From Ophelia neglecta (lineage: Eukaryota), in assembly GCA_965285935.1 (NCBI GenBank), contig OZ260664.1, positions 86,800,001 to 86,864,000 of the forward strand: a stretch of DNA of 64,000 bases, given 5' to 3'. The notes below the pieces were generated by a model. The model was not told the origin of the DNA. It did not search any database and saw nothing but the letters and a program-made list of their open reading frames with translations. A program made the translations under genes and the position numbers. Numbering within the stretch: the first letter of the stretch is position 1; each line of letters starts with the position of its first letter. This document shows, piece after piece, positions 31,861-64,000 of this stretch.

Positions 31861-33825
31861 TTAAGGACAGCACTACAAATCGTTCAGTGCTGCTATTTAG
31901 TTAAAAGAATACATACCTGTTACAGCGCTATAAAGATTTAGTGTTTGAGTAAACATTCGTTCCTTGCACTTAATGCCGATGGAGACTATAAGGACTAAAC
32001 CTAAGTTTATCCATAATTAAAGTTACTATACTGCTTTTGTGTCTAATTCCTGGCAAACCTTCACACACGACTTTCTAGCTTGTGGCAACTGGCACCTTAT
32101 CTGTGGAGTGTGTCGAACCAGAGGACCCAAAGACTACTACCGCCCTTGATCTCCAGCAGCTAGTGACGAGCACGACAGAAAATAAACATTAATGCGTTTG
32201 AAGTGCTAGTGGCCAAGAAGATGACTACTTTTAAAAAAAGAGTGACAAGATATATATAACAGTATTATTAACAATAGTGAAGCGCCACAGGTTTAAAATA
32301 TGACAATTTCTAAGATTCACTGAATTTATATCTGTTTAAGAAGGGAAATGCGCCAAATGCTATTACTTGTAGATGCAAAACCCGTGGCTATTTCCATGTA
32401 TTTTTAAAAACATCCTCCATGTTTGCAGTGCTAGTGTCCAGGGTCTCCGTGACGCAGAGGTTTGTAAACGCCGTTATCAGAGCCCGGACCACTTTTTTGC
32501 TTCCCTTTTTTTTTTCGACAGTTATTCACTGACATTTGCAAGTTTTGAAAAAAAAAACAAGCGAACAATGTTCAGATTAATTGGCCCGGAACCTTCGCAA
32601 TTCGAGTCGTAATCATGATTGAGCAAGAACTAATCTTTAAAACGAAGCCTGATAGGTATTAAACCGTCTTCAACTCCATCACTAGGAGCGCTATACTCTA
32701 AACAAGGGTGCATAGTTTGCATCTACGTCGCACAATAATGTAACCGCGAATTCGGTTTCTTTGCCCTCGCTTTTTTACTCGCTCCTCGACTTTACATCTC
32801 GACCCTCGCTTTCAACTCGCTCCTTGCTGCTCCACCGATTTAAACACTTCGTAATATAATAAGATAATTGAGATTAATATTATGATATTAGCTACAAGAG
32901 TTAAACGGTCGGTTCGTCTCGCCATGTTGTCACCTGGCCTTGTGATACGCATTGCCCAACCTGACAGAAAAAAAATCCTCTGGATTGCCTTGGTTGCCAT
33001 ACTAGTACAGCTCCTTTTGTATTTTCGTTACATGTAGTGTAAGCTGGCAGTACATTTTGAGTACTATTAAATGAAGAAATGCGAATAAAAGTTTCAAATT
33101 TTAAAATAAAGTTGTTGTTACTTAAATATAACTAATTAAGACAACACATTATATTATTAATTCACCGACAAATCAAAGGATGAATTGTTATGGACACGCT
33201 AGGATCTTTGAGACCTCTTGAATGGGCGAGTCAGTGGTCAACGTAGGGCAGAGATAAAATATGCCTTTGGTGCGTCTATAATTATATAATCTCTCAAATG
33301 TTAGGGACCGAATTTGAAATAGTCTCACTAAACAAGTCTCTGCCTCGGAGGTGCGTGCGCTGTTTGCCTGGCCCTGCCGCCTTCACGAGCACCGCAAAGG
33401 TGTACGACGGCGGCCAGGGGATGAGTATTCTATGTGCTCTCACACCGCAAACAGCACAGAGCTGAATACAGGGACTCCAATAGATACAAGACAAGAGAAG
33501 GATGAAACAGATCCTTCCACAATAAAGAGGTAAAGGGCATCGAGCATTGTCGACTGTGCATTAAAATATTAAATAGGTTAAGCGAACCAGGTGAGGTGCA
33601 GAAACGCAAGTAACGCTGCTGGAGGTGAGGTCATTTCTATGGCGTCATATTCGACGACTTGAAAAGCATTAGACGCTACTTTTTGCTAAGAATTAAAGAA
33701 ATCAAGCAAGTTAGACCTAGAAAAGTTGACACTGGAATCCATGATGTTTTCAAGCTATAGTCAAGGTCACTTGCATTTCGCCCTGTGCATTGTGAGCCCT
33801 GATCTATGGTGTCCTAAAGCGGCCA

Positions 33826-34110
33826 TTTCGCGACTTCGCGGCTTCCCTTAATTGCTAAGAGGCGAAGCCGCGAAGTCCCGAAGCGAAGTCGCGAAGCACT
33901 GCGCGCGAAGTCGCGAAGTCGCGAAGCGACATCGCGAAGCGAAGTCGCGAAGTCTCGAAGCGAAGTCGCGAAGTCCCGAAGCGAAGTCGCGAAGTCGCGA
34001 AGCGAAATCGCGAAGTCGCGAAGCTTTAAATGTTAGGAAATCGGGCCATGTAGCTTCGCGACTTCGCTACTTCGCTTCGCGATGTCGCTTCGGGGCTTCG
34101 CGACTTCGCC
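33826..34110. repeat. (TCGCGAAG)-type CpG-rich array in the left TIR
   Basis: Tandem GCGAAGTC/TCGCGAAG units in both orientations. Confidence 0.9.
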
Positions 34111-37100
34111 CTATTTCCTAACATTAAAAGCGCATGCGTGCTGTTGGCGCATGCGCGTCTTACAGTCTTCGTAGAATGGCGGGTGGGTAAGTATGCATCA
34201 CTGACCCGGCGCGCGGCAATGTGTTACAACATTTATTTGTAGAGCGATAGTGAAATGACGTCGAGGAAGCTGTCATGGCTTCGTGCAAAACCGGAGAAAA
34301 ATTCACCAGCTTCAATTTCGCATTGCTTGTGATGTATTATTACTGCATAGGTATATTTAGGCGTAAATGAAAGCTACTTTTCTGTTCTTTAAGATTCTAT
34401 AAAATAAAAGTATATTTTTACACTTCGGGAATGGTAGTGGCCACTCACGGGCTGTGCAAGCGTCGCGAGATTGTATATTTTTTTGGCCGTGTTCTTGCAA
34501 ATTTCGCTATAAGTTTTGGAATTATGAAAAGGCAGCTTAGCTTTTGATATTTTATGAAACAAAAATGTCTTATGAACAATCTGTGAAAGTTTGGCCAGCG
34601 TGCGGGCTTGCGATAAAAATACATCCACTCGGGAACTTGCATACCCCCCCCCCCCAACCCACCCCCTAACCTGTCCGACACCACCTGTGTCAAGGCCGAT
34701 TGGTTTGTTTATCAACAAAGCTCATGCGCTGGTGGACTTTGATGGATTTTTGGGCTTTTATTGAAATATACCACAGGAATTTACAATTGCCCTGTCTTAA
34801 CGTCTAAATGACATTCTCGAATTACCGGGGTTTTGGTTTTAGCTAAGAATAAGGATAAGAATATGGGATAGGTCTCTGGTTTCAGATAGTCACGAATTTA
34901 TTATGTACAAACCTATGACATGACACTTTTCACACACATTTCCATTTGAGTAAATCTATGTTCAAGCATTATAAATAAATTACAGCATGATCAGTAGGCT
35001 TATTGCATTTGACTAGGGGGGGGGGGGGGTCTTGGTGGGGAGGAGGTAGGGGGGGGGGGGGTCTTGGTGGGGAGGAGGTAGGGTGGGGGGAGGACCATTC
35101 TGGTTGAGGGGGTGGCAGTGTGGAATGGGTAGTGTGGCACGGTTGAAGGGCTGGGAGAGGTGCCATTTTGATGATTTCACATGGTTTTTATACATTTGCG
35201 AGGAGGGATGGGGTATTTCAACCGTTGGGATCGATCCATGAATGCAAGTCTTATTTTTTTGTGACTCTAGATTTTGCTGTTGTTGGAGAGATATAATATT
35301 TATGACAGTCCTTTATTGAATGAACACTTACATCTTTCACTTTTCAGCCAAGATCAAACAATCAAAAGTAACAACATTTAGATGTGGTTGTCTAATAAAG
35401 GGAAACAAATCTTCAGAAGAGTTACATTAATTGATATAGGTAGGGCATTAGTGAAAATCCCTAACACACATTGTTTTTATAAACAGGAGGGGAATGTTTA
35501 ACCTTTTTCTTAAATTTAAAGGCGATGGCAAGGACACTTCTTTTAGGCTTTCGGAAGGCGAGCATATTTACTTATTACATTTGTACTTATTATTTCTAAT
35601 GGGATTCTTTTGGGGGTGTTATAAATAAATTGTTAACACTTTCCTTGTAATTGCGGTTTTCTAAAACAAATAAAAAATGGTAAATAATGAATTAAATTTT
35701 AATGATAAACAATAATATCTGGATATTTCTTGCTTTTATTTTTGAAGTTCTATGCTTAACAATTGCACACTCCCAAATTAAACATAGAAGGGATTGGGAT
35801 TATATTGATATAAACAAAATCTTTCCAGAAAAGTTCATATTAGTTATTTGAAAGAAAACAATAACTAGAATGCAAATTCAATATATTTATTATCATTCAG
35901 TCCAGGATGATGCACTGATAATAAAGGGCAAAGTAATAGTCATAAAATCATGTCAGAACATCTACATTATTTGTGACTTAGCCAGGCAAGCATACTTATT
36001 GAATACAAGAATTATAGGAACACAAACCCCCACCTGGCCACGTAAGCACACTATATAAATAGAAGAATTTTAGGAGCACAAGCCCCCGTCCTATTGTAAG
36101 GGATAGCATGCATGCATGCATGTCCGATAGTCACTTTCAACACAAGTTCTAAATAAAATCAAAAGTTATATGTTGGAAGTTATGTAATGTTTCCATTCAG
36201 GAATGGACCGATCCCGGGATGTACACAGTTTCAAAAAAAAATCATCAATGTTTATTTGGGTCGACCGTTTTACCTGTTGCCTTAAGGTTTCCTCTAAAAG
36301 CCACTATAGCAATGTCAAGAAATACTAAAAAAAATCTAATTGGGGCCTGCAAAGTCAACCGTGGGCAGCGCTGATGCTGGTGTACTCTGCTTTGCCCTTA
36401 ACTATAGCAATGCCACGAAACACAGAAATCTTTTTCTAAAATCTGATGTATTTTGGAATTGGGATACATATTGTGGATACGTTTCATGTTACCAGTCACT
36501 CATATACATGTTTGTATGGACGCACCCTTCACCCCCCCCCCCCCCCCCCCATGATAGTACTGCTAGTTCTGTGAGTGTTGTATTTTGACCTATTGTTCAG
36601 ATCCAGTCCACAATTACATGGTGCCAAGGTGCGGCAATGAATTTAAATTCCCACACTTTCACATGTTACATGCATAATGTCTTTACTGAAGTCCTGTCCA
36701 TGTGGAAAATGCATTGGGCATTCACTGTTGTCACCAGATAATCCCCTGCTCTCACAAAGGCATTTTGGACCTCCTGAAATAAAATATTATGACAGTTTGA
36801 TTATTTTCATGTAAATAATAAATATAATAAATAAGACACTGTAAACTGTGAATATATATGTCATATTATGGTTTACCCAAAAATATCAACTATTTGAACA
36901 TCTTAAACATTAAAAGGTTGATCCTGATAATTATAATGATTTTACTCAATTTGTTGCCTGATCACCTTTGCCCAGATTTTGAAAATTTGGCGCCTATAAC
37001 AGCTGACTTAAAAACTAGACTAGACATGTGTCAGTCTGAATATTAGCAGATAGAAATTGTTTTTCTCCAGGGCACCACATTACCTTTTTCAGCACTTGCC

Positions 37101-37149: not shown

Positions 37150-37530
37150 TGTAGTACACACAGACAGGAACCTGTAGAACACACAGACAGGTACAGGTAG
37201 AACAGACAAACAGGTACATAAAGACCACAGATATAGATACAAGTAGGACAGACAGACAGGTTCAGGTAGAAAACATACAAATACATGTAGAACACACAGA
37301 CAGGTACAGGTAGAACACAGACAGATACAGGTAGAACACACAGACAGGTACAGGTAGAACACACAGACAGGTACAGGTAGAACACAGACAGATAAAGGTA
37401 GAACACAGAGACAGGTACAGGTAGAACACACAGACAGATACATGTAGGACAGACAGACAGGTACAGGTAGAACACAGACAGATACAGTTAGAACACACAG
37501 ACAGATACAGGTGGAACACAGACAGATATG
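37150..37530. repeat. About 22-24 bp minisatellite (ACAGACAGGTACAGGTAGAACAC)
   Basis: About 16 degenerate tandem units. Confidence 0.9.
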
Positions 37531-38954: not shown

Positions 38955-39039
38955 TGCTGCAACCAATCTTTGACGGCTAACATGACGCATGCGCCAACCG
39001 CACGCATGCGCTTTAAATGTTAGGAAATAGATCTCTACG

Positions 39040-39326
39040 GCGAAGTCGCGAAGTCGCGAAGTCGCGAAGTCGCGAAGCGACATTGCGAAGGGAAGTAGCG
39101 AAGTCGCGAAGCTACATGGCCCGATTTCCTAACATTTAAAGCTTCGCGACTTCGCGACTTCGCTTCGGGACTTCGCGACTTCGCTTCGAGACTTCGCGAT
39201 TTCGCTTCGCGATGTCGCTTCGCGACTTCGCGACTTCGCCCCCAATGCTTCGCGACTTCGCGACTTCGCTTCGGGACTTCGCGGTTTCGCCTCTTAGCAA
39301 TTAAGGGAAGCCGCGAAGTCGCGAAA
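39040..39326. repeat. (TCGCGAAG)-type CpG-rich array in the right TIR
   Basis: Reverse complement of the left array with unit-number differences. Confidence 0.9.
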
Positions 39327-39589
39327 TGGCCGCTATAGGACACCATACTGATCGGATGCAGAGGCCCGATCTATTTACAAATATGGGCTTGAGAGCTGAC
39401 GAAATAGTTACAAAGCCAGGCAGAGGGGTAAGCAGACGATACAAGCACAGACACGATAAAATCTCTAAAAATAATAGCGTGTCTTATGGATTTAAAACAT
39501 ATTTGCGGAAACTTGGTTTGATACTGGCGCGCGTGAGCAAGATACAACAGAGGTGTCTTGTCAGGAATAAGAAAGTACGTCCTTTGAAT

Positions 39590-43248: not shown

Positions 43249-43274
43249 TTACAGTGACGAATATATAGGTTGAA
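43249..43274 (-). CDS. Gene 2 putative terminal exon (VQPIYSSL*)
   Basis: TTTTTTGTCTAAG acceptor, phase 1, YxxL immediately before the stop. Confidence 0.45.
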
Positions 43275-46200
43275 CTTAGACAAAAAAGGTAAAGCCATTT
43301 AAATTGGCAAACGGATTTCGACAAAAATGTTATGCCTTTAGACAAGTATAAAATTACGTAAAATAGTCTCCTATTCAGTTCTTCAATCATTCTTAAGCAA
43401 TGCAACCACTGGCCAATTCTGTGTCGATGAGCCTGTTTCAAAAGTATATAGCACTAGCGAATCAAGAACACCGATATAGCGAATCAAGAAAATTGAAGGG
43501 TAAAAAATAACATTTTGACGGAAATTGACCAATATTCACTGAATAATACTGCCATCACACAATGATTAGCTAATAATTAAATCAATTGTACCTTTTCCGT
43601 CGACCGAGGTATGTGGTTTATCAGTATGATCCATCGTGTTTTCTGTAAAATTAACAATGTTGTAAATCAAAAATTAAATACGCTAAAAGACTTTATTTCT
43701 TATTATATAATTTCATGTAAGGATTTGGTCGATGTGTCGAATAGTTTACTTTAATAATGCCTATAGTTTTGCTACATATTATATAAGATGAAAGATGAAA
43801 TTACACAAGAAAAAGAAAATACATGAACAAGGAGGTCAAGATACACCCTAAAGATGGAACTGTACTTATAAATGGAAATACATTGGATTTGAAAGAAACT
43901 TTCATTTTTATTAACCCAATACAATTTAGAACCATCATTGCTTTGATAATATGAGAACGTCATCTTAGGTGTTGGGGTGTTGCGCTTGGGTGTTGCAAGG
44001 CAGTGCAACACTCAATAGAAATAAAGTTGTTCATTCAGATTCAGCGCATCTTTCGTGGGGGTCCCTCGGCGATTCGGCCTCGGGCCCGTACATTTCTATA
44101 TGTATATGCTGCCACTGGGACTCTTCGCCGCTATGGGGTTTAATATGCATATCTATACATTCGGATGATGCCCAATCTATCTGGTTTTGAAGCGCCTGCC
44201 TGCAGAATCTATTGGTCGGGGTATTTCTGCCATTGAATTTTGTATAGTTGCTGTGCAGAAATGGATGACCCACAACTTCCTGTAGCTTTACTCTGACAAG
44301 GACGAGATCATAATCTTTGGACAGAAAAATCCACTGGCTTATGCAATGTTTCTTCACATTCCGGGGGACACACGACGGTCATTACTTAAACTAATTCGAT
44401 TGGTAATCTGGGAGTTATGTATGACAGCTGTCTAAGCATGGACGCCCAAGTGTCGAGTGTGGTTGTGTCAATCACATTCCACTTTCGCAACATCTCGTGT
44501 ATCATGAAATCATAAGACACCGAAAACACCAAAATACATATTGCTCTTTTTACGTCTCGACTGGACTACTGCCATTCTCTAGAGTGGTGTTTCCTTGGTA
44601 TTAAAGTGCAGGCTTCAACGGGTCCAAAACTGGGCGGCTCGTCTTCTGTAGTCTCCAGTAGGAGAGACCATATCTTGGAAACCGGGATAATTGCATATGT
44701 GGCACATGATTATGTATAGCCCCTTGCTAGGTGTGTTAAATATTGTATCAGCAATGCAAACCATGACCTTGTTTTTCACCACGTACGCCGATAATATTCT
44801 TTTGCGTTGTAAGAAAGACGAATTTTTCTTACATTTAAATTATTATCTTGAGAATTTACATAACTTCCCCCTTTCTTTGGAGTAGTAAAATACCCTTAGC
44901 CGAAATCTTCCGCCACTCGATCCGGTAATTAATTATATCCGCGAAATGCGGATATTATGGAATCAGTAGCACCGCCGCCGCCGCCGCAGATTTTATTGAG
45001 CTTATTGGACTGTGAATCCAGGTCTGGTGTTTAAGTCTCGCCAGACCCAATTTTCATTCATTTCTTTCAGTTTTTAATTCATTTTAAACTAGAATACCAT
45101 ATGCCGTTATTGTACTATTCTAAAAGCATACACATGGGAAAGTTAGCTGACAGCTAGCTGTACGTAGTTCATAAAACAGGTACTAGTTTAGTTAAAATGC
45201 ATCACCTGGGATCTAAATCTTATATATATATGTTGTGCATTTAAAAGACATGCATATATAGTCAACGTACGAATATATTTGATATAAAGTTTTCCTTTCG
45301 ATTGCACGTGGTTGACTAGCCAAGATGCAGAGCTTCCCCATTATGCCTAAATTGTTAGGGCCAATCTCATCGCATGGTACAAATACGTCATATGGCCGTC
45401 ATTAAAACTCGGTTTACATCCCCTGGAAAGCTGCCGGCCGGCTGTGATTATCGATAGAGGTTTATGTCAGCGAGTAGCGTATTGGACATCACCTCTGCTA
45501 CGATGGAAACCATAATCGCTTCTTCATAAGCTATATCCTTTGAAATAAATCCTATAAATTCGATGCTTCCTTAATTTTTTGACAGTGGATACTATTAGGC
45601 ATAGAATGAGTTATTGATACAAGTGGTCGCCGTTGTAACCAGTATCTAAGACTAATTCATGTCGACAAGTTCGAAGGTAATATGTGTAATTTTTTTGTGT
45701 GCTAGAGTAAGTATCGAAATAAAGGTGGGATTCCACTCTGGAAACAATTAACATTCTTACTTAATATCAAGAGGGATATTTCGCTTCAGTTATGTCTCTG
45801 AGTAATTTATATAAAAAATAAGCCGAACACTTAATTTAGATGGAAAGGAGACGATTTCTCAAAAAACTTGATTAATTAACTACTTAATCAACATACAACA
45901 TTGAGGACATACATTATGTTAGAATCAATTTCTAGAACTTCGAGGAATTTGGCACACCTCTTTTTTTCTTCTAAAAGCCTACATTATAAGCCTACCCCTA
46001 TATTTCAGCCATAAAGATGATTAATAGAACAGTTACTACCGCCTCACTTTTATATTTTACAAATCAATCCCGATAAAAGTGCAATTTGGGTTTATAATCT
46101 TAATTGGGAATTGGTAGTTGCTGAAATTACTATATGGAAAGGACAGTGTTAAACATGACATTTCGGAGCGTAGCTGTTGTTGACAAATATAAGCCGAAAC

Positions 46201-49200
46201 CTCAAACAAGTTGTTCAGCACATGCTTTTGAACTAGGTCATATCAATTGGGCCAATATTGGTAAAGAAAGTTTCAGATAGTGGTCTTAAAACTTTACTAC
46301 GTTTTTGGCATTTCAAGATAAATTATGTGTTAAATCTACCCATGACATTCGCATAGCATATTTATTTCATCATTAAGCTTGTAGCAAAGTTTTGGAGTAC
46401 ATGACACAACCAAAAATACCATAATCTTTCGTCAGACGTAAGAATTTTCAATCAGCTTATATAATCATGTATTTTCAGATTTATTTTCTTTTCTTACCTT
46501 TGTTACTTCCTGACTTCATTTGTGCATCCTGTTCGTTCATGTTATTCCCTGGAAAACAATGAGTGAATTTGTGAAATCAGTTAATCTAATTAATGAATGC
46601 AAGGCTAATTCTTCTAGCAATTATTCCATTATGTTTCTACTTATGGTTTCTACTACCCATGACATTTGCATAGCATATTTATTGGATCATTAAGCTTGTA
46701 GCCATGTTTTGGGGTACATGACACACACCAAAATACCATAATCTTTCGTCAGACGTAAGGATTTTCAATCAGCTTATATAATCATGTATTTTCAGATTTA
46801 TTTTATTTTCTTACCTTTGATACTTCCTGACTTCATTTGTGCATCCTGTTCGTTCATTTTATTCCCTGGAAAACAATGAGTGAATTTGTGAAATCAGTTA
46901 ATCTAATTAATGAATGCAAGGTTAATTCTTCAAGCAATTATTCCACTATGTCTCTACTTAGGTATCACGAGACTTGGGGAGACAAAATCACAAGGGCTAC
47001 ACATCTGTAGATAAAGTTTCATATTACATATTTTACAAGGCACTGAACACTGGACGAAGAATCATTCGTGGTGATTAATCACCACTCTGGTTTGACAGGC
47101 CGGTAAGGCATAACTTAGCTTCTGTAATTTGTAGCGATTTAGATGAAATAAATTATGTCTGTACATTTTTGTTTACATATCAATGGAGTTAGAACTGATG
47201 CATGAGAATACAAAACTTTCTTTCCTTAATATAATAAACCAGGCACATTTTCTAACACTGCTCCGTCCTTTGGTCTTATGTCCAATCCAAGTTCATACCT
47301 ATCTACTAAATTTATGAGGTAAAGGACCGTTTTCTAAGGTTTTCAATGGCAAAGGGCCGTTTACAAAATAATCCGGATCCTTCCATAGTTTGTTCAGCAT
47401 ATTATTTTTATCTTGTTTATATCAATTACGTCACAATAAGGAACAATGGTTTGTCTAGAACTTCGAGAAATTCGGCACACATCTTCGTTCCTTCTAAAAG
47501 CCTACATTATAAGCCTACCCCTATTTTTCAGCCATAAAATGATTAATAAAACAGTTCCTACCGCCTCAAAAATTATAGGGTTATGACACAAATCAATCCC
47601 GGTAAAAGGGTATTTTGGGTTTATAATTTTAATTGGGTATTGTTAGTTGCTAAAATAACTACATGGAAAGGACAGTTTCAAACATGACATTTCGGAGCGT
47701 AACTGTTGCAGACAAATATAAACCGAAACCTCAAACAAGTTGTTCAGCACATGCTTTTAAATTAGCTCACATCAATTGCGCCAATATTGGTAAAGAAAGT
47801 TTGAGACAGTGGTCTTAAAACTAGTCGACTAGGTTTTTGTCATTTTAAGATAAATAATATGTCAAACCTACCCCTGCATGCGCATATTTATTAAATCATA
47901 AAGCTTGTGGCCATGTTTTGGGGCACATGACACACTAAAAATATCATATTCTTTCGTCAGATGGAAGAATTCTCAATCAGTTATATAATCATGTATTTTC
48001 AGATTTATTTTATTTTCTTACCTTTGTTACTTCCTGACCTCATTTGTGCATTCTGTTCGTTCATTTTTTTTCCTGGAAAACAATAAGTGAAATTGTGAAA
48101 TCACTTAATATAATTAATGGATTCACGGCCAATTCTTCTAGCAATTATTCCACTATGATTCTACTTAAGTATCACGAATCTTGGGGCCTACATCACAAGG
48201 CCTACATAAGAAACACACACCTCTTTTTTTTTCTAAAAGCCTACATTATAAGCCTACCCCTATATTTCAGCCATAAAGATGATTAATAAAACAGTTACTA
48301 CCGCCTCACTTGTATATGGTTGTAACACATATCATATAAAAGTCTTAAAACTTTACTACGTTTTTGGCATTTCAAGATAAATTATGTGTTAAATCTACCC
48401 ATGACATTCGGTATTCCAAGTTTCAAGTTTTATTCAAGTTTTATTCCCTCATGGCACCTCCCGGAGCATAGAGTAAAAACTCAATAAATACAATAGGTAG
48501 GATAAATAAGGCAGATACAATAAATATCACATATATGTACATATGCCTGTGAACCAGTATACAATTAATCTATAATTTTATAAGTGATTGAATCTAGAAC
48601 TTGTGGACAATACCAGATTTGCTGATAAATAAGGCTAGTTGTTTCTGTAAGTTATCACATTTGAACATGCAACCAAATTTGAACATGCTGACATTCGAGA
48701 GGTAGTAAGGAGGTATATGTTTAGCTCGGAGGCTAATAAAATCCTCATGTTTACATTCAATAAAGATGTGGAATTCTTCCCCCAACTTGCCAATGTTACA
48801 TTTATTACAAAAACGTTCATTTCTTGGTACTTTACTGTACCTGCCTGTCTCAACAGGTAACTTATGATTACTCAAGCGGAATTTGCACAGTGATGTTGCC
48901 AAGTCAGAAGGGAGATCTGTGAGATATCTCTCCAACCCAAATTTACTTTTAAATGCTTTCTAGGTAGAGCATATAGGTAGACTAATGACATCTGAAAGCC
49001 ACTTTTGCTCAAACTGATCACTTAGTGTTCTCTTTACTTTAAGCTTTAACCATTTAGGATTGAAATTCTGGGTGACAGAGAAGAAACTACTATTACCGGT
49101 TTCATCTAGAATCTTTTTGATACTATTTACCCATGGGCTTTGATACCGTTGGTTTACATTCATCTAAAAAAAAATACTTGTACAATCTGGAACTAAGTTT

Positions 49201-52200
49201 ACTTGACTTTCCTGTTACAAGACCTGCCAAGAAACCAATCATTCTAGTTTTGATATGGACACTGATAGGGTGCCTACCTAGTTCACCATATACCATAGTG
49301 TTACAAGTAGCCCTCTTCACTTTAAGCATGTATATACAGAATTGGAGTGGGCAGCCTCAATTATAATATTGTCACCACTTCCCCATATTTCACAGCCATA
49401 TGTCAGTATAGGCAGTACGCATAGCATATTTATTACATCATTAAGTTGTAGCCAAGTTTTGGGGTACATGACACACACAAAAATACCATAATCTTTCGTC
49501 AGACGTAAGAATTTTCAATCAGCTTAGATAATCATGTATTTTCAGATTTATTTTCTTTTCTTACCTTTGTTACTTCCTGACTTCATTTGTGCATCCTGTT
49601 CGTTCATGTTATTCCCTGGAAAACAATGAGTGAATTTGTGAAATCAGTTAATCTAATTAATGAATGCAAGGCTAATTCTTCTAGCAATTATTCCATTATG
49701 TTTCTACTTATGGTTTCTACTACCCATGACATTTGCATAGCATATTTATTGGATCATTAAGCTTGTAGCCATGTTTTGGGGTACATGACACATACAAAAA
49801 TACCATAATCTTTCGTCAGACGTAAGAATTGTCAATCAGCTTATATAATCATGTATTTTCAGATTTATTTTATTTTCTTACCTTTGTTACTTCCTGACTT
49901 CATTTGTGCATCCTGTTCGTTCATGTTATTCCCTGGAAAACAATGAGTTAATTTGTGAAATCAGTTAATCTAATTAATGAATGCAAGGCTAATTCTTCTA
50001 GCAATTATTCCATTATGTTTCTACTTAAGTATCACGAGACTTGGGGAGACGTAAAACACAAGGCCTACACATCTGTGGATAAAAGTTTCATATTACATAT
50101 TTTACAAGGCACTGAACACTGGAAAAAAGAATCATTCGTATTGATTAATCACCACCCTGGTTTGACAGGCCGGTAAGGCATAACTTAGCTTCTGTAATTT
50201 GTAGCGATTTAGATGAAATAAATTATGTCTGTACATTTTTGTTTACATATCAATGGAGTTTGAACTGATGCATGAGAATACAAAACTTTCTTTCCTTAAT
50301 TAAATAAACCAGGCACATTTTCTAACACTGCTCCGTCCTTTGGTCTTATGTCCAATCCAAGTTCATACCTATCTACTAAATTTATGAGGTAAAGGACCGT
50401 TTTCTAAGGTTTTCAATGGCAAAGGGCCGTTTACAAAATAATCCGGATCCTTCCATAGTTTGTTTAGCATATTATTTTGATCTAGTTTATATCAATTACG
50501 TCACAATAAGGAACAATGGTTTGTCTAGAACTTCGAGAAATTCGGCACACATCTTCGTTCCTTCTAAAAGCCTACATTATAAGCCTACCCCTATTTTTCA
50601 GCCATAAAATGATTAATTAAACAGTTCCTACCGCCTCAAAAATTATAGGGTTATGACACAAATCAATCCCGGTAGAAGGGTATTTTGGGTTTATAATTTT
50701 AATTGGCTATTGTTAGTTGCTAAAATTACTACATGGAAAGGACAGTTTCAAACATGACATTTGGGAGCGTAACTGTTGCAGACAAATATAAACCGAAACC
50801 TCAAACAAGTTGTTCAGCACATGCTTTTAAATTAGCGCACATCAATTGCGCCAATATTGGTAAAGAAAGTTTGAGACAGTGGTCTTAAAACTAGTCTACT
50901 AGGTTTTTGTCATTTTAAGATAAATAATATGTCAAACCTACCCCTGCATGCGCATATTTATTAAATCATAAAGCTTGTGGCCATGTTTTGGGGCACATGA
51001 CACACTAAAAATATCATATTCTTTCGTCAGATGGAAGAATTCTCAATCAGTTATATAATCATGTATTTTCAGATTTATTTTATTTTCTTACCTTTGTTAC
51101 TTCCTGACCTCTTTTGTGCATTCTGTTCGTTCATTTTTTTTCCTGGAAAACAATAAGTGAAATTGTGAAATCACTTAATATAATTAATGGATTCACGGCC
51201 AATTCTTCTAGCAATTATTCCACTATGATTCTACTTAAGTATCACGAATCTTGGGGCCTACATCACAAGGCCTACATAAGAAACACACATCTATTTTTTT
51301 GTCTAAAAGCCTACATTATAAGCCTACCCCTATATTTCAGCCATAAAGATGATTAATAAAACAGTTACTACCGCCTCACTTTTATATGGTTGTAACACAA
51401 ATCATATAAAAGTCTTAAAACTTTACTACTTTTTGGGCATTTCAAGATAAATTATGTGTTAAATCTACCCATGACATTCGCATAGCATATTTATTACATC
51501 ATTAAGCTTGTAGCCAAGTTTTGGGGTAAATGACACACACAAAAATACCATAATCTTTCGTCAGACGTAAGAATTGTCAATCAGCTTATATAATCATGTA
51601 TTTTCAGATTTATTTTATTTTCTTACCTTTGTTACTTCCTGACTTCATTTGTGCATCCTGTTCGTTCATGTTATTCCCTGGAAAACAATGAGTGAATTTG
51701 TGAAATCAGTTAATCTAATTAATGAATGCAAGGCTAATTCTTCTAGCAATTATTCCATTATGTTTCTACTTAAGTATCACGAGACTTGGGGAGACGAAAT
51801 CACAAGGCCTACATATCTGTGGATAAAGTTTCATATTACATATTTTACAAGGCACTGAACACTGGAAAAAAGAATCATTCGTATTGATTAATCACCACCC
51901 TGGTTTGACAGGCCGGTAAGGCATTACTTAGCTTCTGTAATTTGTAACGATTTAGATGAAATAAATTATGTCTGTACATTTTTGTTTACATATCAATGGA
52001 GTTAGAACTGATGCATGAGAATACAAAACTTTCTTTCCTTAATTAAATAAACCAGGCACATTTTCTAACACTGCTCCGTCCTTTGGTCTTATGTCCAATC
52101 CAAGTTCATACCTATCTACTAAATTTATGAGGTAAAGGACCGTTTTCTAAGGTTTTCAATGGCAAAGGGCCGTTTACAAAATAATCCGGATCCTTCCATA

Positions 52201-55200
52201 GTTTGTTCAGCATATTATTTTGATCTAGTTTATATCAATTACGTCACAATAAGGAACAATGGTTTGTCTAGAACTTCGAGAAATTCGGCACACATCTTCG
52301 TTCCTTCTAAAAGCCTACATTATAAACCAACCCCTATTTTTCAGCCATAAAATGCTTAATAAAACAGTTCCTACCGCCTCAAAATTTATAGGGTTATGAC
52401 ACAAATCAATCCCGGTAAAAGGGTATTTTGGGTTTATAATTTTAATTGGGAATAGTTAGTTGCTAAAATAACTACATGGAAAGGACAGTTTCAAACATGA
52501 CATTTCGGAGCGTAACTGTTGCAGACAAATATAAACCGAAACCTCAAACAAGTTATTCAGCACATGCTTTTAAATTAGCTCACATCAATTGCGCCAATAT
52601 TGGTAAAGAAAGTTTGAGAGAGTGGTCTTTAAACTAGTCGACTAGGTTTTTGTTATTTTAAGATAAATAATATGTCAAACCTACCCCTGCATGCGCATAT
52701 TTATTAAATCATAAAGCTTGTGGCCATGTTTTGGGGCACATGACACACTAAAAATACCATATTCTTTCGTCAGATGGAAGAATTCTCAATCAGTTATATA
52801 ATCATGTATTTTCAGATTTATTTTATTTTCTTACCTTTGTTACTTCCTGACCTCATTTGTGTATTCTGTTCGTTCATTTTTTTCCCTGGAAAACAATAAG
52901 TGAAATTGTGAAATTACTTAATATAATTAATGGATTCACGGCCAATTCTTCTAGCAATTATTCAACTATGTTTCTACTTAAGTATCACGAATCTTGGGGC
53001 CAACATCACAAGGTTACATAAGAAACTCACATTTTTCTTCTTCTAAAAGCCTACATTATAAGCCATCCCCTATATTTCAGCCATAAAGATTATTAATAAA
53101 ACAGTTACTACCGCCTCACTTTTATATGGTTGTAACACAAATCAATCCCGATACAAGTGCAATTTGGGTTTATAATCTTAATTGGGAATTGGTAGTTGCT
53201 AAAATTACTATATGGAAAGGACAGTGTTAAACATGACATTTCGGAGCGTAGCTGTTGTTGACAAATATAAGCTGAAACGTCGAACAAGTTGTTCAGCACA
53301 TGCTTTTGAACTAGGTCATATCAATTGCGCCAATATTGGTAAAGAAAGCTTCAGATAGTGGTCTTAAAACTTTACTACGTTTTTGGCATTATAAGATAAA
53401 TTATGTGTTGAATCTACCCATGACATTCGCATAGCATATTTATTACACCATTAAGCTTGTAGCCAGGTTTTGGGGTACATGACACACACAAAAATACCAT
53501 AATCTTTCGTCAGACGTAAGAATTTTCAATCAGCTTATATAATCATGTATTTTCAGATTTATTTTCTTTTCTTACCTTTGTTACTTCCTGACTTCATTTG
53601 TGCATCCTGTTCGTTCATGTTATTCCCTGGAAAACAATGAGTGAATTTGTGAAATCAGTTAATCTAATTAATGAATGCAAGGTTAATTCTTCTAGCAATT
53701 ATTCCACTAAGTTTCTACTTAGGTACCACGAGACTTGGGGAGACAAAATCACAAGGCCTACACATCTGTAGATAAAGTTTCATATTACATATTTAACAAG
53801 GCACTGAACACTGGACGAAGAATCATTCGTGGTGATTAATCACCACCCTGGTTTGACAGGCCGGTAAGGCTTAACTTAGCTTCTGTAATTTGTAGGGATT
53901 TAGATGAAATAAATTATGTCTGTACATTTTTGTTTACATATCAATGGAGTTAGAACTGATGCATGAGAATACAAAACTTTCTTTCCTTAATAAAATAAAC
54001 CAGGCACATTTTCTAACACTGCTCCGTCCTTTGGTCTTATGTCCAATCCAAGTTCATACCTATCTACTAAATTTATGAGGTAAAGGACCGTTTTCTAAGG
54101 TTTTCAATGGCAAAGGGCCGTTTACAAAATAATCCGGATCCTTCCATAGTTTGTTCAGCATATCATTTTGATCTAGTTTATATCAATTACGTCACAATAA
54201 GGAACAATTGTTTGTCTAGAACTTCGAGAAATTCGGCACACATCTTCGTTCCTTCTAAAAACCTACATTATAAGCCTACCCCTATTTTTCAGCCATAAAA
54301 TGATTAATAAAACAGTTCCTACCGCCTCAAAAATTATAGGGTTATGACACACATCAATCCCGATAAAAGGGTATTTTGGGTTTATAATTTTAATTGGGAT
54401 TTGTTAGTTGCTAAACTAACTACATGGAAAGGACAGTTTCAAATAATGACATTTCGGAGCGTAACTGTTGCAGACAAATATAAACCGAAACCTCAAACAA
54501 GTTGTTCAGCACATGCTTTTAAATTAGCTCACATCAATTGTGCCAATATTGGTAAAGAAAGTTTGAGATAGTGGTCTTTAAACTAGTCTACTAGGTTTTT
54601 GTCATTTTAAGATAAATAATATGTCAAACCTACCCCTGCATGCGCATATTTATTAAATCATAAAGCTTGTGGCCATGTTTTGGGGCACATGACACACTAA
54701 AAATACCATATTCTTTCGTCAGATGGAAGAATTCTCAATCAGTTATATAATCATGTATTTTCAGATTTATTTTATTTTCTTACCTTTGTTACTTCCTGAC
54801 CTCATTTGTGCATTCTGTTCGTTCATTTTATTTCCTGGAAAACAATAAGTGAAATTGTGAAATCACTTAATATAATTAATGGATTCACGGCCAATTCTTC
54901 TAGCAATTATTCCACTATGTTTCTACTTAAGTATCACGAATCTTGGGGCCTACATCACAAGGCCTACATAAGAAATTTTGTTTAACAATAAAACTAAACC
55001 TCCTTTTCAAGCAATGAACGCAATGCCAGGACAAACAAATTTATCATATTCAAAATCCACCTCCAAATATCAGAAGACCTTAAATAGAAAAAAACAGAAC
55101 TCATAACACTGAGCATAATGTCAACAGTATTAAACAGCCAGCTGCCAAACCGATCATAATAAATTTAACTTGCAGTCTGTAATCACAATCGGATAATTAT

Positions 55201-58184
55201 AAACGCTGCTCAAAATGATTCATATGAACTACATTTGCACATTAACAAACACAAGGAAAGAATTTAAACACGACAGTTAACCGCCGAAGTTCGCTACGTA
55301 CTGAGGGCGATAATCCTTTTCTAGATATTTGCTTATATGGGTCATTCAAAACTGCAAACATACATCGTCTGATGCATTTATGGGCAAATATATTATACTT
55401 CCTTTTAGATAATACAATTTGTTACCATTCCTGGAGGAATATATATGAAAATCAGAATAGCGAATGATTTGCAAAGAACTGTAGTAAACAGGTAGATGTT
55501 TTTAACCCATAATAAAATCAAAGAATATGTAGTTTATAGAGATCGTCAGAAATTGTCAGTCTTCGGTTTTTAAAGCTAAAGTACTGCCTTTCATAGTGGC
55601 GTAAGTATGGTAGGTAATTGAACTATATATACCCTCAACGCCTGCCGTCTCTATTAACGTGTGTTTAGGATGGAATCTCTGGTTTTTGTGATACCTAGTA
55701 GGACAACATATGTAACTACGGTAATAACTATGGCTAGTGTTTCAGCAGTGTATTCTTTGCCAAGAAGAGCAGTTTACCAAGTTAACAAATTGCATTTGGC
55801 ATGTACTGAATTCTTTATATAGCTCCTGGAGACTTGTCCCTTTCACTGCAACTGCCTACTTTATAGTGAAAAGCTGTCAGCCGTGTTCCTAAAATAGTGC
55901 CTACTCTGCAGGTAGAGGGAAGCGATTTACTGTGTGGATTCATAACTTGCCTTTCGTCATAATTTGGCCGATGTCTTCACCCTCCCCCCCCCCCCCTGCA
56001 ACACACACATACACACCCTCCCTTACACACACCCACCCATCCACACACACACAAACCCACACACACATACTCACATCCATTCGCCAAAGTGCGAGCAATT
56101 TAATACTAGCATTTTAAACCAGTAGCCCAATTTCAGTCTTTTTTGAGCAGGCAAATTATGACCATACATCCGTCTTAGATTCCCAGAAGGCACACTCTGT
56201 TGGAATGAGGAAAACTGGTTTATGTTGCCCTGAGAGGTGATTAATGCTGATAAAGCGTCGACCATCGTAGACTCTTCAAGGTCATATATGTTCAATGTTG
56301 ATCACTGACTGGTTTGTTTTGTGTTCTGGCCGGCTCGAGAAAATTATGTTTTCATTGTCTAGTATGTGCATTCCGAGTTTATGTACTAATTGGTAGCTGG
56401 ATATTAATTTCTTGATTATTGTGGGCTATGGCTGTTGGTTCCTGATGATTTCGGAGCGATTTAATGAACTCTTTTGGAATAATGATTAGGTTTGTCTTCC
56501 GGGTACCATTTCCGTTTAAATTGTTTACTGATGAAAGGCCATTGACCTTCAGAATGTTTCTAGAATGCACCATTAGCCGGCAAATTCGTTAAGATGACGG
56601 CCAATTACAAGATGGCTACCATTTTATCATGAAACAATAGAAATATTTACGCAGCCTCAGATAGATAGAGCACCATGTTTTCCTGAAACTTTCTAAAAGT
56701 ATTCACAATTACTTTTGAATCCCAAACATATGTAAATGAGGCATGATTGCAAAGTTACGGTCTCATTTAAATACGACACAAATGGGACTGGAAACCCATA
56801 AGATAAACGTAAATCAGAAGTCAGAAATTTATCCATTAGTTCCCAATTCATCAGTTTCTGGTTCTCATTAAATTCCCCGTTCCGTAACAAAACAAATAAA
56901 ATCTAATCACAAGCAATGAAATTGTTCCAAGGCGTGATTCAATTAAGCAAAAATATGTTTGTGGTCGAAGTACGATGAAAAAAAGGATATAAAATTATAA
57001 GGCTCGACACATTTTTAAAAACCCGTTTTACCTATGTATTGACTCACTTTTTCCAACTTTTTATCAACCTCTACTCATGCTTTTCATTCAGAACAAACAT
57101 ATCTGATCCGTACACCAAGGAAGTCTGTACACAATGAAGCTAACAATCTAAGATTAGAAACACGCTATAAAAATCATGAAACAGACAAATTACACTCCCC
57201 TCTTCGGTACCAATATATACCACACCAAGAATAAATCTTCGTAATTCTTGGGTATTTATAAAATAAGTCATGAATAATAGGAAAAACAGCACCCATATTT
57301 TGCTTATTTAATATTTGAATACATGCATTGTGATTTATTAATAATAACCCGTCGAATAGTACGTAAAGAACGCAGAATGATGACGTAGGATGATCAATTA
57401 CAATTATTGGGTGAATATATAGCAAACTGCATTTCGCCAAAAGCAATACACGTTATACATACACATAATGTTATGTTACGCGAGAGAGCCATTTTTCATT
57501 CTATTGTTCTGAATTACAAATAGAAGTGCAATACGTAAAGACATAGTATTTACCTATTTTTTTTTCAAATCAATTTAATTTATTCAATTGTAATATTATA
57601 TACACTGTTCATTTATAATACTTCGTAAGTTTAGAATTATTAAAACAGCAAAAGAAAAAGAAAATAGCACAAATATAATATAAATAAAAAGGACTGAAAG
57701 CTTAGAGCTTATGTGTCCCTTCCATATCACTAAACAGCATGGCGAAAATTGTTACATGCAGTGTGAATGTGCTAATATGTACAGACAGATAATCGCAGAA
57801 ATTCATTCACGCTTACTAAAAAAAACTCACTACATTACTTACTTGATGTAAGGCATAGTATAATCAATGATGCGATCACTGCGACGCCGATTATACCTCC
57901 AATCACACCGCCGATGATTTTACCGATCTGACTTTCATCTAAAACATTAACCCATAACTTAGTTGAGCGGCAGGTCGTTCACAAAGGAAAAACCCATACA
58001 AATTAATCGCATATGCGCTATGCAAGAATCCCCAGAAAAACATTGCATTTGGGGATATTGATATAGAGATAGTTACAACAACAGAAAAAGCCAGCGCCTA
58101 TAATAGACTTACCAGGTACCGTGGTAGTTTTCAAATCAGGTATATTGGTGGAAGGATTTAGCGTCGAGGTGATTGAAGTGCTAT
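43249..58184 (-). CDS. Gene 2 (3' part): type I membrane protein with Ser/Thr stalk, TM, and cytoplasmic tail of repeated phase-1 mini-exons; integrity uncertain
   Basis: Stalk exon 58113-58184, TM exon 57843-57938, ten 51-nt exons in 46498-54834, diverged 51-nt exon 43592-43642, terminal exon 43249-43274; all phase-1 compatible; connectivity is inferred. Confidence 0.55.
43592..43642 (-). CDS. Gene 2 diverged 51-nt exon (ENTMDHTDKPHTSVDGK)
   Basis: TTTTACAG acceptor, AG|GTAC donor, phase 1-1; shares N2, M4, D8, S13, K17 with the array exons. Confidence 0.6.
44040..44700 (+). mobile_element. Old L2-type RT fragment
   Basis: Decayed GVP..LGP, HSDDAQ (YADDTQ-like) and SRLDYC motifs. Confidence 0.6.
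46498..54834 (-). CDS. Ten 51-nt phase-1 mini-exons (G[NK][NK]MNEQ[DN]AQM[KR]SGSNK)
   Basis: 46498-46548, 46815-46865, 48022-48072, 49565-49615, 49882-49932, 51092-51142, 51627-51677, 52835-52885, 53576-53626, 54784-54834; each has TTGTTTTCCAG and AAG|GTAAG and no stop or indel. Confidence 0.65.
48411..49417 (-). mobile_element. 5'-truncated RTEX-like LINE inserted in the tandem array
   Basis: MVYGELGRHP..FRLSNHKLPVETGRY..CNKC..EEFHIFIEC; tail (AATAAAACTTG)n near 48415-48445; interrupts ACATTCG|CATAGC of the repeat. Confidence 0.88.
57843..57938 (-). CDS. Gene 2 transmembrane exon
   Basis: DESQIGKIIGGVIGGIIGVAVIASLIILCLTS; TTTTAG acceptor, GTAAGT donor, 96 nt phase 1-1. Confidence 0.8.
58113..58184 (-). 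CDS. Gene 2 Ser/Thr-rich stalk exon
   Basis: DSTSITSTLNPSTNIPDLKTTTVP; TTTGCAG acceptor, G|GTAAGT donor, 72 nt. Confidence 0.75.
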
Positions 58185-58822
58185 CTGCAAATAAACAATT
58201 ATGGAAATGAAGAATTCTCACCCACATACAGTTGGCTTCAACAGTTTCTCATATTGTTGGAAGTTGGTCAAAGTGTACAAATTGGAAAAAGAAGGAGACT
58301 GTACTTGGTACTGGTCGCACACTTTGTAGTCGTTCCTATGGATATTCAGCATACATGCTTTAGTTTAATATAGATATTGTCATTCTAGCAAAAATGGTTT
58401 AAATGAATATATACCTATATGGATTTTCGAAATGCCAAAAAACATTCAAACCAAGTCAAATATTAATGCCCCTAAAGCATCACATGTGTACCAAGTCTCC
58501 CACTTTCCGCTATTAATCATACACTGGCTAGTATAATGATATAACCAAGTCGCCCACATTTGTAACCAGTCTCCAAGTGAACATATATCTTATGTCAAAT
58601 TTCAAACTGTTTGTATTTAACACAAACCAACTCTATATCAAATGTGACCTGTTAAATGTATTAAAAGTGAAAACGCCCACATTTGTACCAAGTCTCCCAA
58701 AAACATATATTTCATCAATTTTAAGTATATTAAGTCCAAGCTAACTCACCCATACTTGTAAATATCGCGTTTAATTTTATATTTACTTCTTTATTAAAGA
58801 ACATTTAATAAACATAACAGAC

Positions 58823-61800
58823 GTTTGTTTGATTGATTGATTGATTGTTTTATTATCCTCAACTCAATGAGAGCATTACATTCAATGCAGTAATTCAAAC
58901 AATGTTAACAAGCATAGTTATGTAGAGGGTGAAATATATATACAACAATAATACCGATGCCTACATCGGCGATTCAATCAATGTAGGTACGCTCCAATGG
59001 GTTCACATAACTATATGTGTACATTGATTTACAGAAAAGCCCATAGAATATACACACTTGCTTCAATATAGTATCCAGATCAGATTTATCCATAACTATG
59101 CAACTTTCACCGCCTAAAAGAGTAACAATCAGATCTATATCTACCAAGTGATCCAACTTTACGTAAGTATCCACATTAATTGAGTTACACAGCTCTGTCC
59201 AAAATAGGAGACGCACGTCTGCTAACAAAACACAACCACCTTCACAAAACAAATGACTAAATGGACATAGTACCTCAGATTTACACAGGGCGCATGATAC
59301 TTTTAAACTGTTGTTGTATAAAAAGAAGAGCCACAGTAGGTTAATTACGCGGTTCTGTAACTCTATATTCCGTCTAGCAAACTGGTACAGAACAATTGGA
59401 GACAACTCTTCCCCATAAGCATAGTTATATACGTGACACCCGGGTTTGTTTGACATCGAAAAAGCCCACTGATGTGTTTCTAAAGCACAGATTCCCTCAT
59501 TTATTATCAATTTCCACTCGGATTTCGATGGAAAACTACCAGCATCACAGTATACATGTAAGTATTCCGACAATTCATATTTCTTACATACATTAAAAAT
59601 ATCAGAAACAAAACCATTGACTTTCAAACCTTTACGTGATCTCTCCAAGTATGATCGCAATCTAAGGTTAAATACATCTTTTGCCAAGTGGTTTTCTGAC
59701 AAGTTACACAATTTATTTAAAAGCATCAATTTCCTATTCTCAATTATGCTTTGAATAGACATCCACCCAAGCATACCCCTCGCAATTTCATCATGCATTC
59801 TCAATGGGAAGCCCTGTATGCTTTTCGCGATGAACTTTTGAGTTCGTTCCAACTCTTGCAGTTCCTGTGGAGATAGGTCATTCCACAGTTCGGCTCCATG
59901 GAGAAAGGAGGGGATGCAAATTTTAGTCCAGAGGCCGGCCGATGTGAGTGGGTTCAGGCATGTGGGTTTTATGCCCACTGCAGCCATGCCTGCCATTTGT
60001 CTCCCCGTTTTACACGCCTCCGTTGTTCTCAGAGAAGACGATAAGTACGAGCAGAGGGTAATACCCACGTGGGTCTCGTGTGTGACCTCTTCCAGATTCT
60101 CCGAGTATAGCTTCCACTGGCGCAGTTCCATGTTCTTGGCATTACTGATTTTCTTCTCACCAAATACTAATACTCTGCTTTTAGCTACAGAGAAGCGTAG
60201 GCGCCACATTCTTGAGTACAAATCAGCGGAGTCCAGCATTCGCTGCAACCCTGAGACGGTTGGGGACATCAGGGCGGTATCGTCTGCTAAGGTAGGTGAG
60301 CCCACGTCTATGCCATCTACGACTAGCCCATCTCCGTTACTTCCAACGTGCTCGTGTATGTCCATGTAGGATACAGAGTACAAAACATGGAGAGCATGTC
60401 TCCCTGTTTAATACTACGAGATATTGGAAACTCATTTGACATTGAGCCGCTGACCAGTACAGACATTGTAGATCCAACTAGGGTCATTCGGATCAGATGC
60501 CAAAGTTTACCGGTGACACCTAACCGGAAGACCTTCAGAAGAAGGCCATCCCACCAGACACGATCGAACGCCTTTTCAGAGTCCAGCAGGGCCACATAAA
60601 CCTTGCTTCCCCTTTCTATAAAGTGGTGAATGGATTCTTGAACAAAAAATGACAACATTATATTGCTGGATTCCTTTTTCGAGTGCTGTAGTTTGCATGG
60701 AAATTGTATGTCATGGAGAAGTGGTTGCCATCTGGTCCATATCAGCTTTTCGTCAATTTTATAATTGTTGGTAATAGCGTGATACCTCTATAAGAATTCT
60801 TGTCTGTTTTCTGTTTGTTTTTACCTTTGTACATGGGAATAATCACTCCAAGCTTGAAGGCCTTAGGGATGTATACAGCAGAAGTCATTTCGTTGAACAG
60901 ATGGCATAGCATCCGTACACAGATCGGACTGGCGTATTTTAGATGTTCGTAACGAATATTGTCCCACCCCGGTGCTTTACCATTGGGAAGGCCTCTAACA
61001 GCAGTCGGGATTTCATCCGCAGTTATGGGCGCCTCAAGGATTTCGAGCGTGTCCGTCTCCTTGCTCTGTGAGGTAAGCAGGGCCTGAACCTCCTCCTTTA
61101 CGGTAGCTGCGAACACTTCGTCATAGTCACACGATTCACAGTGTTGTTCATTGAGAAGCTGGTTAAAATGTTCTCCCCAAAAATCCCGCAGTTCCACAGG
61201 TGTACGGTAGGTAGCATCCCCGTTTTTGATTAGGTGTAGAGACTCTGGGGTCTTACGATTTCTACGAACATACCTCCAAAAGGAGCGGAGGTCGAATTCA
61301 CTCTGGTGTTGGGCTTTCTCGTAGCGTTCATGTTGACGGCTGTTAGACTTGGCATATTGTTTTATTCGAAATTTCGTTTTTGCCGACTTGTATTCCCTAT
61401 AAGAATCATATTCCGGACCTCTGGGTTTACCTTCTTTAACCCACACAGTGCGTTTTTGTAGCTGAAGTTTGTGAACCAGTTCTAGCGCGTCATCCCAGTA
61501 GTCGTTCTGATACGACTTTACAGCGTACTTCGGAACAGCACAATCCGACGCTTTTATCAGAGCATCACTAAGGATGTTTGCCAGTTCGTCAATTTTCTTT
61601 TCAGGTAGGTTCGTTTCTCCAAGTTGGTGTGTCATAAGTATATTATCCAAAGCTTGGGTATAGGCTAATTTATTAATTTTACCCCAATTTAGGTTGATTC
61701 TCTATGCACAGGTATGCCTGGGAAGGTGACATGTGACTTTACAGTATACAGGTAAGTGATCTGATGTATTCAAAGTATCCAACATTACCTTACAACAACT

Positions 61801-63517: not shown

Positions 63518-64000
63518 ACACCGCCGATGATTTTACCGATCTGACTTTCATCTAAAACACTAACCCATAACTTAGTTGAGCGGCAGGTCGTTCACAAAGG
63601 AAAAACCCATACAACTTAATCGCATATGCGCTATGCAAGAATCCCCAGAAAAACATTGCATTTGGGGACTCTAATATATATTAATATAGAGATAGTTACA
63701 ACAACAGAAAAAGCCAGCGCAATAGACTTACCAGGTACCGTGGTAGTTTTCAAATCAGGTATATTGGTGGAAGGATTTAGCGTCGAGGTGATTGAAGTGC
63801 TATCTGCAAATAAACAATTATGGAAATGAAGAATTCTCACCCACATACAGTTGGCTTCAACAGTTTCTCATATTGTTGGAAGTTGGTCAAAGTGTACAAA
63901 TTGGAAAAAGAAGGAGACTGTACTTGGTACTGGTCGCACACTTTGTAGTCGTTCCTATGGATATTCAGCATACATGCTTTAGTTTAACATAGATATTGTT
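63518..64000 (-). repeat. Second copy of 57905-58380 (intact stalk exon 63732-63803, TM exon truncated by the LINE)
   Basis: Near-identical to 57905-58380 with a few SNPs and small intronic indels; runs off the window end. Confidence 0.95.

Follow-up and report, generated by a model that had tools for sequence, protein, structure and literature searches.

Probable last coding exons of an immunoglobulin-superfamily receptor gene in Ophelia neglecta, with a tail enlarged by local copying of a 51-nt exon

CD47 combines one V-type immunoglobulin (Ig) domain (IgV) with five membrane helices and a spliced tail. The Alr genes of Hydractinia are outlined as a clustered, fast-diverging family of Ig membrane genes, in which Alr1 and Alr6, in single-pass forms, vary their membrane domains and tails through splicing; the same source gives the ITIM (immunoreceptor tyrosine-based inhibitory motif) consensus as [I/L/V/S]xYxx[I/V/L] (10.1101/2022.03.04.482883). 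Tandem duplication of phase-symmetric exons in disordered regions is likewise a known process, as summarized in two accounts (PMC3632108, PMC9013439). The present analysis concerns two short stretches, 43642-43592 and 43274-43249, on the minus strand of a 64,000-nucleotide window of Ophelia neglecta contig OZ260664.1 (C7:86800001-86864000; coordinates above 64000 continue the window numbering). Both are likely the final coding exons of a receptor gene in the Ig superfamily, with a start that would lie approximately 40 kb beyond the window and a tail that would end in a single tyrosine motif.

The predicted layout of the gene, all on the minus strand, begins with two Ig domains and three membrane exons, continues through a serine/threonine (S/T) stalk and a fourth membrane exon to ten 51-nt repeats, and closes with the two last exons. 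The Ig domains are each split over two exons, Ig1a (105316-105181) and Ig1b (99875-99679), followed by Ig2a (90579-90443) and Ig2b (90358-90199). The membrane exons TM1 (88157-88008), TM2 (76957-76853; 105 nt) and TM3 (76422-76318; 105 nt, with a GC donor) are followed by a 45-nt exon (65180-65136), a 72-nt S/T-rich stalk exon which is present as an upstream (63732-63803) and a downstream copy (58113-58184), and a fourth membrane exon of 96 nt in phase 1-1 (57843-57938), which was assigned through its homologous exon on contig C33 and through charge counts. When joined with a single stalk copy, the model contains 22 exons and 596 open codons, is free of stops and frameshifts and ends exactly at the stop codon of VQPIYSSL, with a predicted tail of 197 residues that contains one tyrosine. 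In Pfam, the Ig half-domain exons match the families Ig_3 (E 2.2e-4) and C2-set_3 (E 6.9e-4), in each case short of the curated cut-offs; the characteristic cysteine and tryptophan residues are conserved in the paralogs, and the derived profile retrieves multi-Ig proteins. Paralogs also match the upstream exons, with Ig2 and TM1-3 present at C7:86.58 Mb and the whole layout on C33. The two stretches, read as exons, complete this gene model, in which a lineage-specific Ig receptor probably ends with them, and with fairly high confidence both are real exons, their splicing being predicted from sequence; both are probably tail exons.

The first of the two stretches, referred to here as the eleventh exon, is 51 nt long and open in phase 1-1, as the original prediction had stated, and is bounded by ttttacAG upstream and GTacaa downstream. 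It is located 2855 nt after the last array exon, and of four candidates listed for the interval from the array to the last exon it is the sole one in phase 1-1. Its peptide, read together with the base G that ends the last array exon, is ENTMDHTDKPHTSVDGK, and the five identities to the A-type array peptide that had been reported for it (N2, M4, D8, S13 and K17) are all correct, corresponding to 5 of the 16 internal residues. The significance of this resemblance was assessed against all open AG-51-GT stretches in phase 1 on both strands of 1.33 Mb, with the array excluded (n = 1731). The eleventh exon ranked first against the A peptide (BLOSUM score 18; runner-up 17), while at least five identities were reached by 5 of the 1731 stretches and usable splice scores by 15 (0.011 per kb per strand). 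Shuffles that preserve composition and the last codon returned p values of 0.006 for identities and 0.011 for score (upper value 0.013), rising to 0.02-0.03 once both splice-adjacent residues were dropped, and the match is confined to register 0 of the 11 registers tried. Splice sites were scored with a rough matrix of our own, on which the acceptor of the eleventh exon reaches 3.8 and falls within the range of other exons in the gene. If it is a real exon, its sequence makes kinship with the array unit likely, and the two are probably old duplicates.

The second stretch is reached after an intron of 317 nt, through the first acceptor past the eleventh exon with a score of at least 1 (score 1.6), and reads VQPIYSSL-TAA in phase 1 at 43274-43249, which agrees with the exon originally predicted. 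Among 5407 equally good acceptors, 56 (1.0%) yield a peptide that ends in YxxL/V/I. Polyadenylation-type hexamers (ATTAAA/AATAAA) are present downstream at 43054, 42528 and 42009. The YxxPhi sorting motif is a tyrosine followed, after two residues, by a bulky hydrophobic residue, and a class I PDZ ligand is a C-terminal S/T-x-hydrophobic sequence; YSSL fits the former pattern and the terminal SSL the latter, a pattern fit which needs the exon to be terminal. The ITIM-like character proposed for this end is retained in part: YxxL is present, with proline at position -2 as had been recognized, but Q-P-I-Y-S-S-L does not match the ITIM consensus on account of that proline. The C33 paralog ends in GVYFTNIY, in which a tyrosine occupies the same register and YxxL is absent (one paralog). 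Identity as an ITIM is accordingly not established, and the terminal motif is predicted from its sequence as likely to work like a tyrosine docking site.

The ten repeats that precede these exons are of two types, B type at 54784-54834, 52835-52885, 51092-51142 and 48022-48072 (array exons 1, 3, 5 and 8) and A type at 53576-53626, 51627-51677, 49882-49932, 49565-49615, 46815-46865 (with two changes) and 46498-46548 (exons 2, 4, 6, 7, 9 and 10). They are adjacent, equal in length and phase and similar to one another, as is typical of tandem exon duplication, 45 to 51 of 51 nt being identical to the A-type unit; the eleventh exon joins them at the protein level only. Length, frame and strong splice sites are kept in all ten copies. 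A genome-wide search with the unit returned at least 10 matches, every one at this locus, and the repeats are therefore a local exon array and not a dispersed satellite; the earlier label of satellite, with its connotation of a high-copy array or of presence at many loci, was an overstatement. Eight exon sites vary among the ten copies and at 7 of these sites the residue is altered, the expectation in the absence of selection being 84%, and A-versus-B divergence amounts to 9.8% in the exon, 9.8% in the preceding 22 nt and 11.8% in the downstream intron. None of nine comparisons between C33 tail exons and the 17-aa module gave a p value below 0.15. There is no detectable amino-acid selection on the array copies, which look neutral, and the protein-level constraint formerly attributed to the module was not borne out by these results.

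The closest parallel to the complete layout is a paralog on C33, whose exons are predictions obtained by exon modelling. It is open for 495 codons and proceeds from a signal-peptide exon (at 219799) through four Ig half-exons, TM1-3 (at 186236, 185589 and 185326; TM2 and TM3 of 105 nt each), three S/T exons and a 96-nt membrane exon, which is identical to that of the present gene at 52/96 nt, to its tail exons. The latter measure 48, 50 and 52 nt and are followed by a short phase-1 terminal exon, in which tyrosine occupies the fifth codon following an aliphatic residue. A hydrophobic candidate for TM1 at C33:194783 was rejected, as this repeat is also found in an intron of the present gene. 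The C33 paralog carries a duplicated S/T stalk exon of its own, two 99-nt copies 10 kb apart (C33:173565-173663 and 163108-163206), a duplication which is independent of that at the locus studied here. In this gene cluster, tails are usually built from short phase-1 exons and closed by a short last exon: a relative at C7:86.26-86.30 Mb has tail exons of 60 and 57 nt, and those of a neighbouring gene measure 42 and 51 nt. Because of this usual arrangement and of the C33 layout, the mini-exon model is better supported than before, and on grounds separate from the argument first advanced for it.

Several observations weigh against the interpretation of both stretches as the last coding exons of a single receptor gene, and they are set out here beside the alternative explanations to which they pertain. 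The eleventh exon may be real and yet unrelated to the array unit, its length and five identities being coincidental among short hydrophilic exons, an alternative which we regard as somewhat unlikely. At the DNA level the eleventh exon and the A-type unit share 22/51 nt (p 0.34), which constitutes no signal; the identity by codon position (9/7/5 of 16 for positions 1/2/3) follows the direction expected of old coding duplicates, but with a p value of 0.35. The flanks are unlike the array, as already proposed (best blastn E 0.39; local alignments to the array rank 633 and 912 among 4302 windows). Of the claim that the 17-aa module predates the array, an old duplication is retained as probable (shuffle p 0.006-0.03); DNA kinship is absent. 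Furthermore, the core-only p value of just 0.02-0.03 is compatible with coincidence, and equal length alone proves little, because an unrelated 51-nt phase-1 exon exists in the neighbouring gene. The paralog at C7:86.58 Mb contains a 63-nt exon that is about as alike (p 0.03-0.05), with N and HTS in register and a DNA rank of 13/4302. Coincidence is less readily reconciled with the first rank among 1731 stretches, the equal length and phase, the adjacency to the array and the single-register match. As for possible homology between the eleventh exon and the 63-nt exon, the p value of 0.03-0.05 was obtained in one of 15 pairings, and the fit of the 63-nt exon to the array unit and to the 45-nt exon is about as good.

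That both stretches are chance intron sequence is very improbable. The donor of the eleventh exon (AAG/GTACAA) would suit such an explanation, with a score of 0.0 that is the lowest among 12 internal exon types, and the good splice sites claimed for this exon consequently apply to its acceptor and not to its donor. Chance is contradicted by the density of usable 51-nt candidates, of which this one is also the best of 1731, by the 1% frequency per acceptor of a YxxL-stop ending, and by the frame of the ten array exons, which requires a terminal exon.

It is quite unlikely that the IYSSL exon is not terminal, in which case either a GTAAGT donor at 43252 would be used or the gene would end through an acceptor at 42932 with a hydrophobic tail. 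The donor overlaps the stop codon, thereby allowing a 22-nt internal exon, and its score (2.5) exceeds that of the donor of the eleventh exon; the acceptor at 42932 scores 4.4 versus 1.6 for that of the terminal exon. Down to position 24000, however, none of 35 phase-2 continuations resembles a coding exon when judged by eye, the C33 paralog closes with a short tyrosine-containing exon and a stop, and the hexamers named above follow the exon.

A further alternative, which we consider unlikely, holds that expression of the tail module (the fourth membrane exon, the array and the last exons) has been lost, with transcripts ending at a retroelement or the gene in decay. A broken non-LTR-type (lacking long terminal repeats) retroelement in the sense of the gene, recognized by its fragmented open reading frames and by Pfam RVT_1 (E 7.5e-8 in one of six frames scanned), is located at 58850-63517, minus strand, with a copy of a 925-nt segment on either side. 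It carries a terminal AATAAA, and a truncated first copy of the fourth membrane exon (63518-63551, minus strand) runs into it and reads 28 codons to a stop; together these could stop transcripts before the tail, and transcripts that reach the tail must skip both the truncated copy and the AATAAA of the retroelement. The neutral-looking array, the weak acceptor of the fourth membrane exon and the fact that a signal-peptide exon was not found for this gene are compatible with loss of expression. Such loss is difficult to reconcile with 22 exons without a stop or frameshift and with strong splice sites in all ten array copies. Moreover, the 925-nt duplication restores an intact membrane exon downstream. 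This segment begins in the 45-nt exon and ends in the fourth membrane exon, and its copies (57905-58834 and 63518-65151, the second running past 64000) differ by 12 mismatches. In three runs of one sample, possibly that of the assembly itself, whose sequences behave as DNA contigs, contigs break at the segment and its depth is 22 versus about 15, which is consistent with a real duplication. The retroelement and the duplicate resemble the outcome of an insertion whose flanking duplication was unusually long and supplied an intact exon downstream; a literature search for retroelements accompanied by large flanking duplications yielded no such paper.

The three-exon membrane module follows two Ig domains in three genes, at C7:86876318-86888157, C7:86571549-86578167 and C33:185222-186236. 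In the paralog at C7:86.58 Mb, Ig2 and TM1-3 occur in the same order, with membrane exons 38-56% identical to those of the present gene. TM2 and TM3 were considered as mutually exclusive duplicates, both being 105 nt in 3/3 genes, and this was rejected given a hhalign probability of 0.3% and a shuffle p value of 0.16. With respect to topology, the TM1-TM2 loop carries 7 lysine or arginine (K/R) residues in 28 (4 in 30 on C33) and the TM2-TM3 loop one, from which TM1-3 is predicted to read out-in-out-in. The fourth helix is also predicted to read from outside to inside: S/T residues make up 30-43% of the segment before it, an NAS sequon immediately precedes it on C33, and within 15 residues after it there are 3 K/R here and 5 on C33. 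The charges around the fourth helix favour a tyrosine motif inside the cell, whereas an all-exon model with four helices would place it outside. The out-in-out-in reading of TM1-3 and the outside-to-inside reading of the fourth helix are not both accommodated in one chain.

This clash would be removed if the locus consisted of two tandem genes, one encoding two Ig domains and the three-pass module and the other, small and separate, encoding the stalk, one helix and the tail, and thus owning both exons. An improbable alternative in our estimation, it is in keeping with the gap of approximately 11 kb that follows TM3 both here and on C33, and with the C7:86.58 Mb paralog, the nearer of the two, in which the three-pass module stands alone and no stalk-TM4-tail module was seen (a candidate terminal exon ending in FTSLTSFLK was rejected there at rank 3053/4302). 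It is opposed by the retention of the TM3 donor in 3/3 genes, by the joining of all exons in frame, and by the fact that neither gap yielded a convincing signal-peptide exon; in both genes, here and on C33, the stretch from TM3 to the stalk likewise gave no convincing extra membrane exon. The 8 candidates listed for an exon between the fourth membrane exon and the array included no good one in frame. Other ways out of the clash are a fifth helix that was not found or a segment that does not cross the membrane.

Within a single receptor gene, the clash may also be solved by two interchangeable anchors, namely the three-pass TM1-TM3 module or a mucin stalk with a single helix, placed between a common two-Ig head and a tyrosine-ended tail. 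Of the ways out of the clash it is the one we favour, though tentatively, as a possibility rather than as the probable arrangement. Omission of either module retains the frame, leaving 476 and 525 codons with the end unchanged. The two modules coexist here and on C33, whereas the three-pass module is seen alone at C7:86.58 Mb and a single helix alone at C7:86.26 and 85.66 Mb. Splicing among exons that are all in phase 1 would choose the anchor; either alone would place the tail inside and both together would place it outside, and through the ten-copy array the length of the tail could be adjusted in steps of 17 residues. If correct, the switching between three-pass and one-pass anchors under one head and tail would represent an unusual diversification of an invertebrate receptor.

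Returning to the two stretches as the end of one receptor gene, we propose that its tail is a low-complexity spacer assembled from short phase-1 exons. An old tandem duplication would have produced two 51-nt exons, one of which was then copied to ten together with its introns while the other became the eleventh exon, and the array copies would have drifted without detectable amino-acid selection. The terminal IYSSL would be the part most likely to matter, as a potential docking site for SH2 domains (when phosphorylated on tyrosine), for YxxPhi-dependent sorting, or for a PDZ partner via SSL, and the array would merely set the distance of this motif from the membrane.

The surrounding region is rich in related genes and repeats. 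The relative at C7:86.26-86.30 Mb (C7:86255941-86315241) shares Ig1b (92%) and upstream DNA with the present gene and has a different Ig2 and one helix; it is a probable product of recombination between paralogs. Another relative, at C7:85.66 Mb, likewise has a single helix, and its tail is short. Between C7:85.17 and 85.98 Mb, further two-Ig genes with the CxxxCx[YF]PxP Ig2 signature or a related Ig1b exon occur on both strands, several of them near-identical. A neighbouring multi-copy family of multi-Ig single-pass receptors is represented at 6822-17587 of the window (minus strand) and at C7:86.54, 86.60, 86.71 and 86.93-86.96 Mb; its copies at C7:86.61 and 86.96 Mb contain a 51-nt exon with YAQV, and that at 86.96 Mb has a canonical VIYAQV followed by an IYENT exon. 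As regards repeats, the array is interrupted at approximately 48440-49410 (minus strand) by an insertion, likely the 3' fragment of a retroelement to judge from its high contig depth and reading frames. The intron that leads to the eleventh exon contains, at 44930-45440, a very high-copy short element with contig depth above 14000 in all three runs. A GCGAAGTC-rich repeat is present in two copies of opposite orientation and 83% identity, approximately 5 kb apart at 33805-34155 and 38986-39347; these are possibly transposon ends, and a 23-nt tandem array (37151-37528) is present between them.

Among public proteins, no relatives of TM1 or Ig1b, and none that combine an Ig head with the three-pass module, were found with single short exons as queries, which makes this a weak negative. 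The Ig2 profile obtained 207 protein matches, of which none of the 150 examined by hydropathy scan was clearly three-pass; the one multi-hit protein, P0144, is a repeat. Among these matches are V+C2 Ig proteins of Lineus longissimus (XP_064651507-9 and XP_064640254-5), which carry the same CxxxCx[YF]PxP Ig2 signature and one membrane helix. They are single-pass only, and the match is to a 45-residue profile (E 1.6e-7 and 5.7e-5), from which orthology is not implied. Isoforms X1 and X3 of the Lineus Ig protein differ by one duplicated 43-residue tail unit, which is unrelated. The membrane exons, queried as short single exons, gave no Pfam match (7 exons) and no PDB match below E 0.69 that would connect them with CD47 or claudin, and nothing was found in the literature on a receptor with an Ig head and a three-pass module.

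CD47 resembles this gene in having an Ig domain on a multi-pass membrane part and differs in that the gene here has an S/T stalk, a second Ig domain and four hydrophobic exons. As far as the Alr family is outlined in its source, the likeness is one of layout only: in both, clustered and fast-diverging Ig membrane genes have a spacer, tyrosine motifs and tails that diverge beyond the ectodomains, and undergo exon shuffling, whereas most Alr proteins are single-pass, each Ig domain being encoded by one exon, and here the Ig domains are split over two exons and joined to a three-pass module. Vertebrate ITIM receptors such as LILRB, as summarized in PMC11999971, have in common with this gene an Ig ectodomain, a helix and a YxxL near the end of the tail; the motif considered here is single, has proline at -2 and is not kept in the paralog. 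When set against the symmetric-exon duplications as summarized in PMC3632108 and PMC9013439, the array shows no difference of kind, its ten near-identical copies with rearranged introns representing a recent and large example. Tail growth by exon copying is thus ordinary, and the tail described here, grown recently and without sign of selection, is a clean instance of it; the unusual part is the anchor layout of the receptor, with which the potential importance of the gene rests more than with its two last exons.

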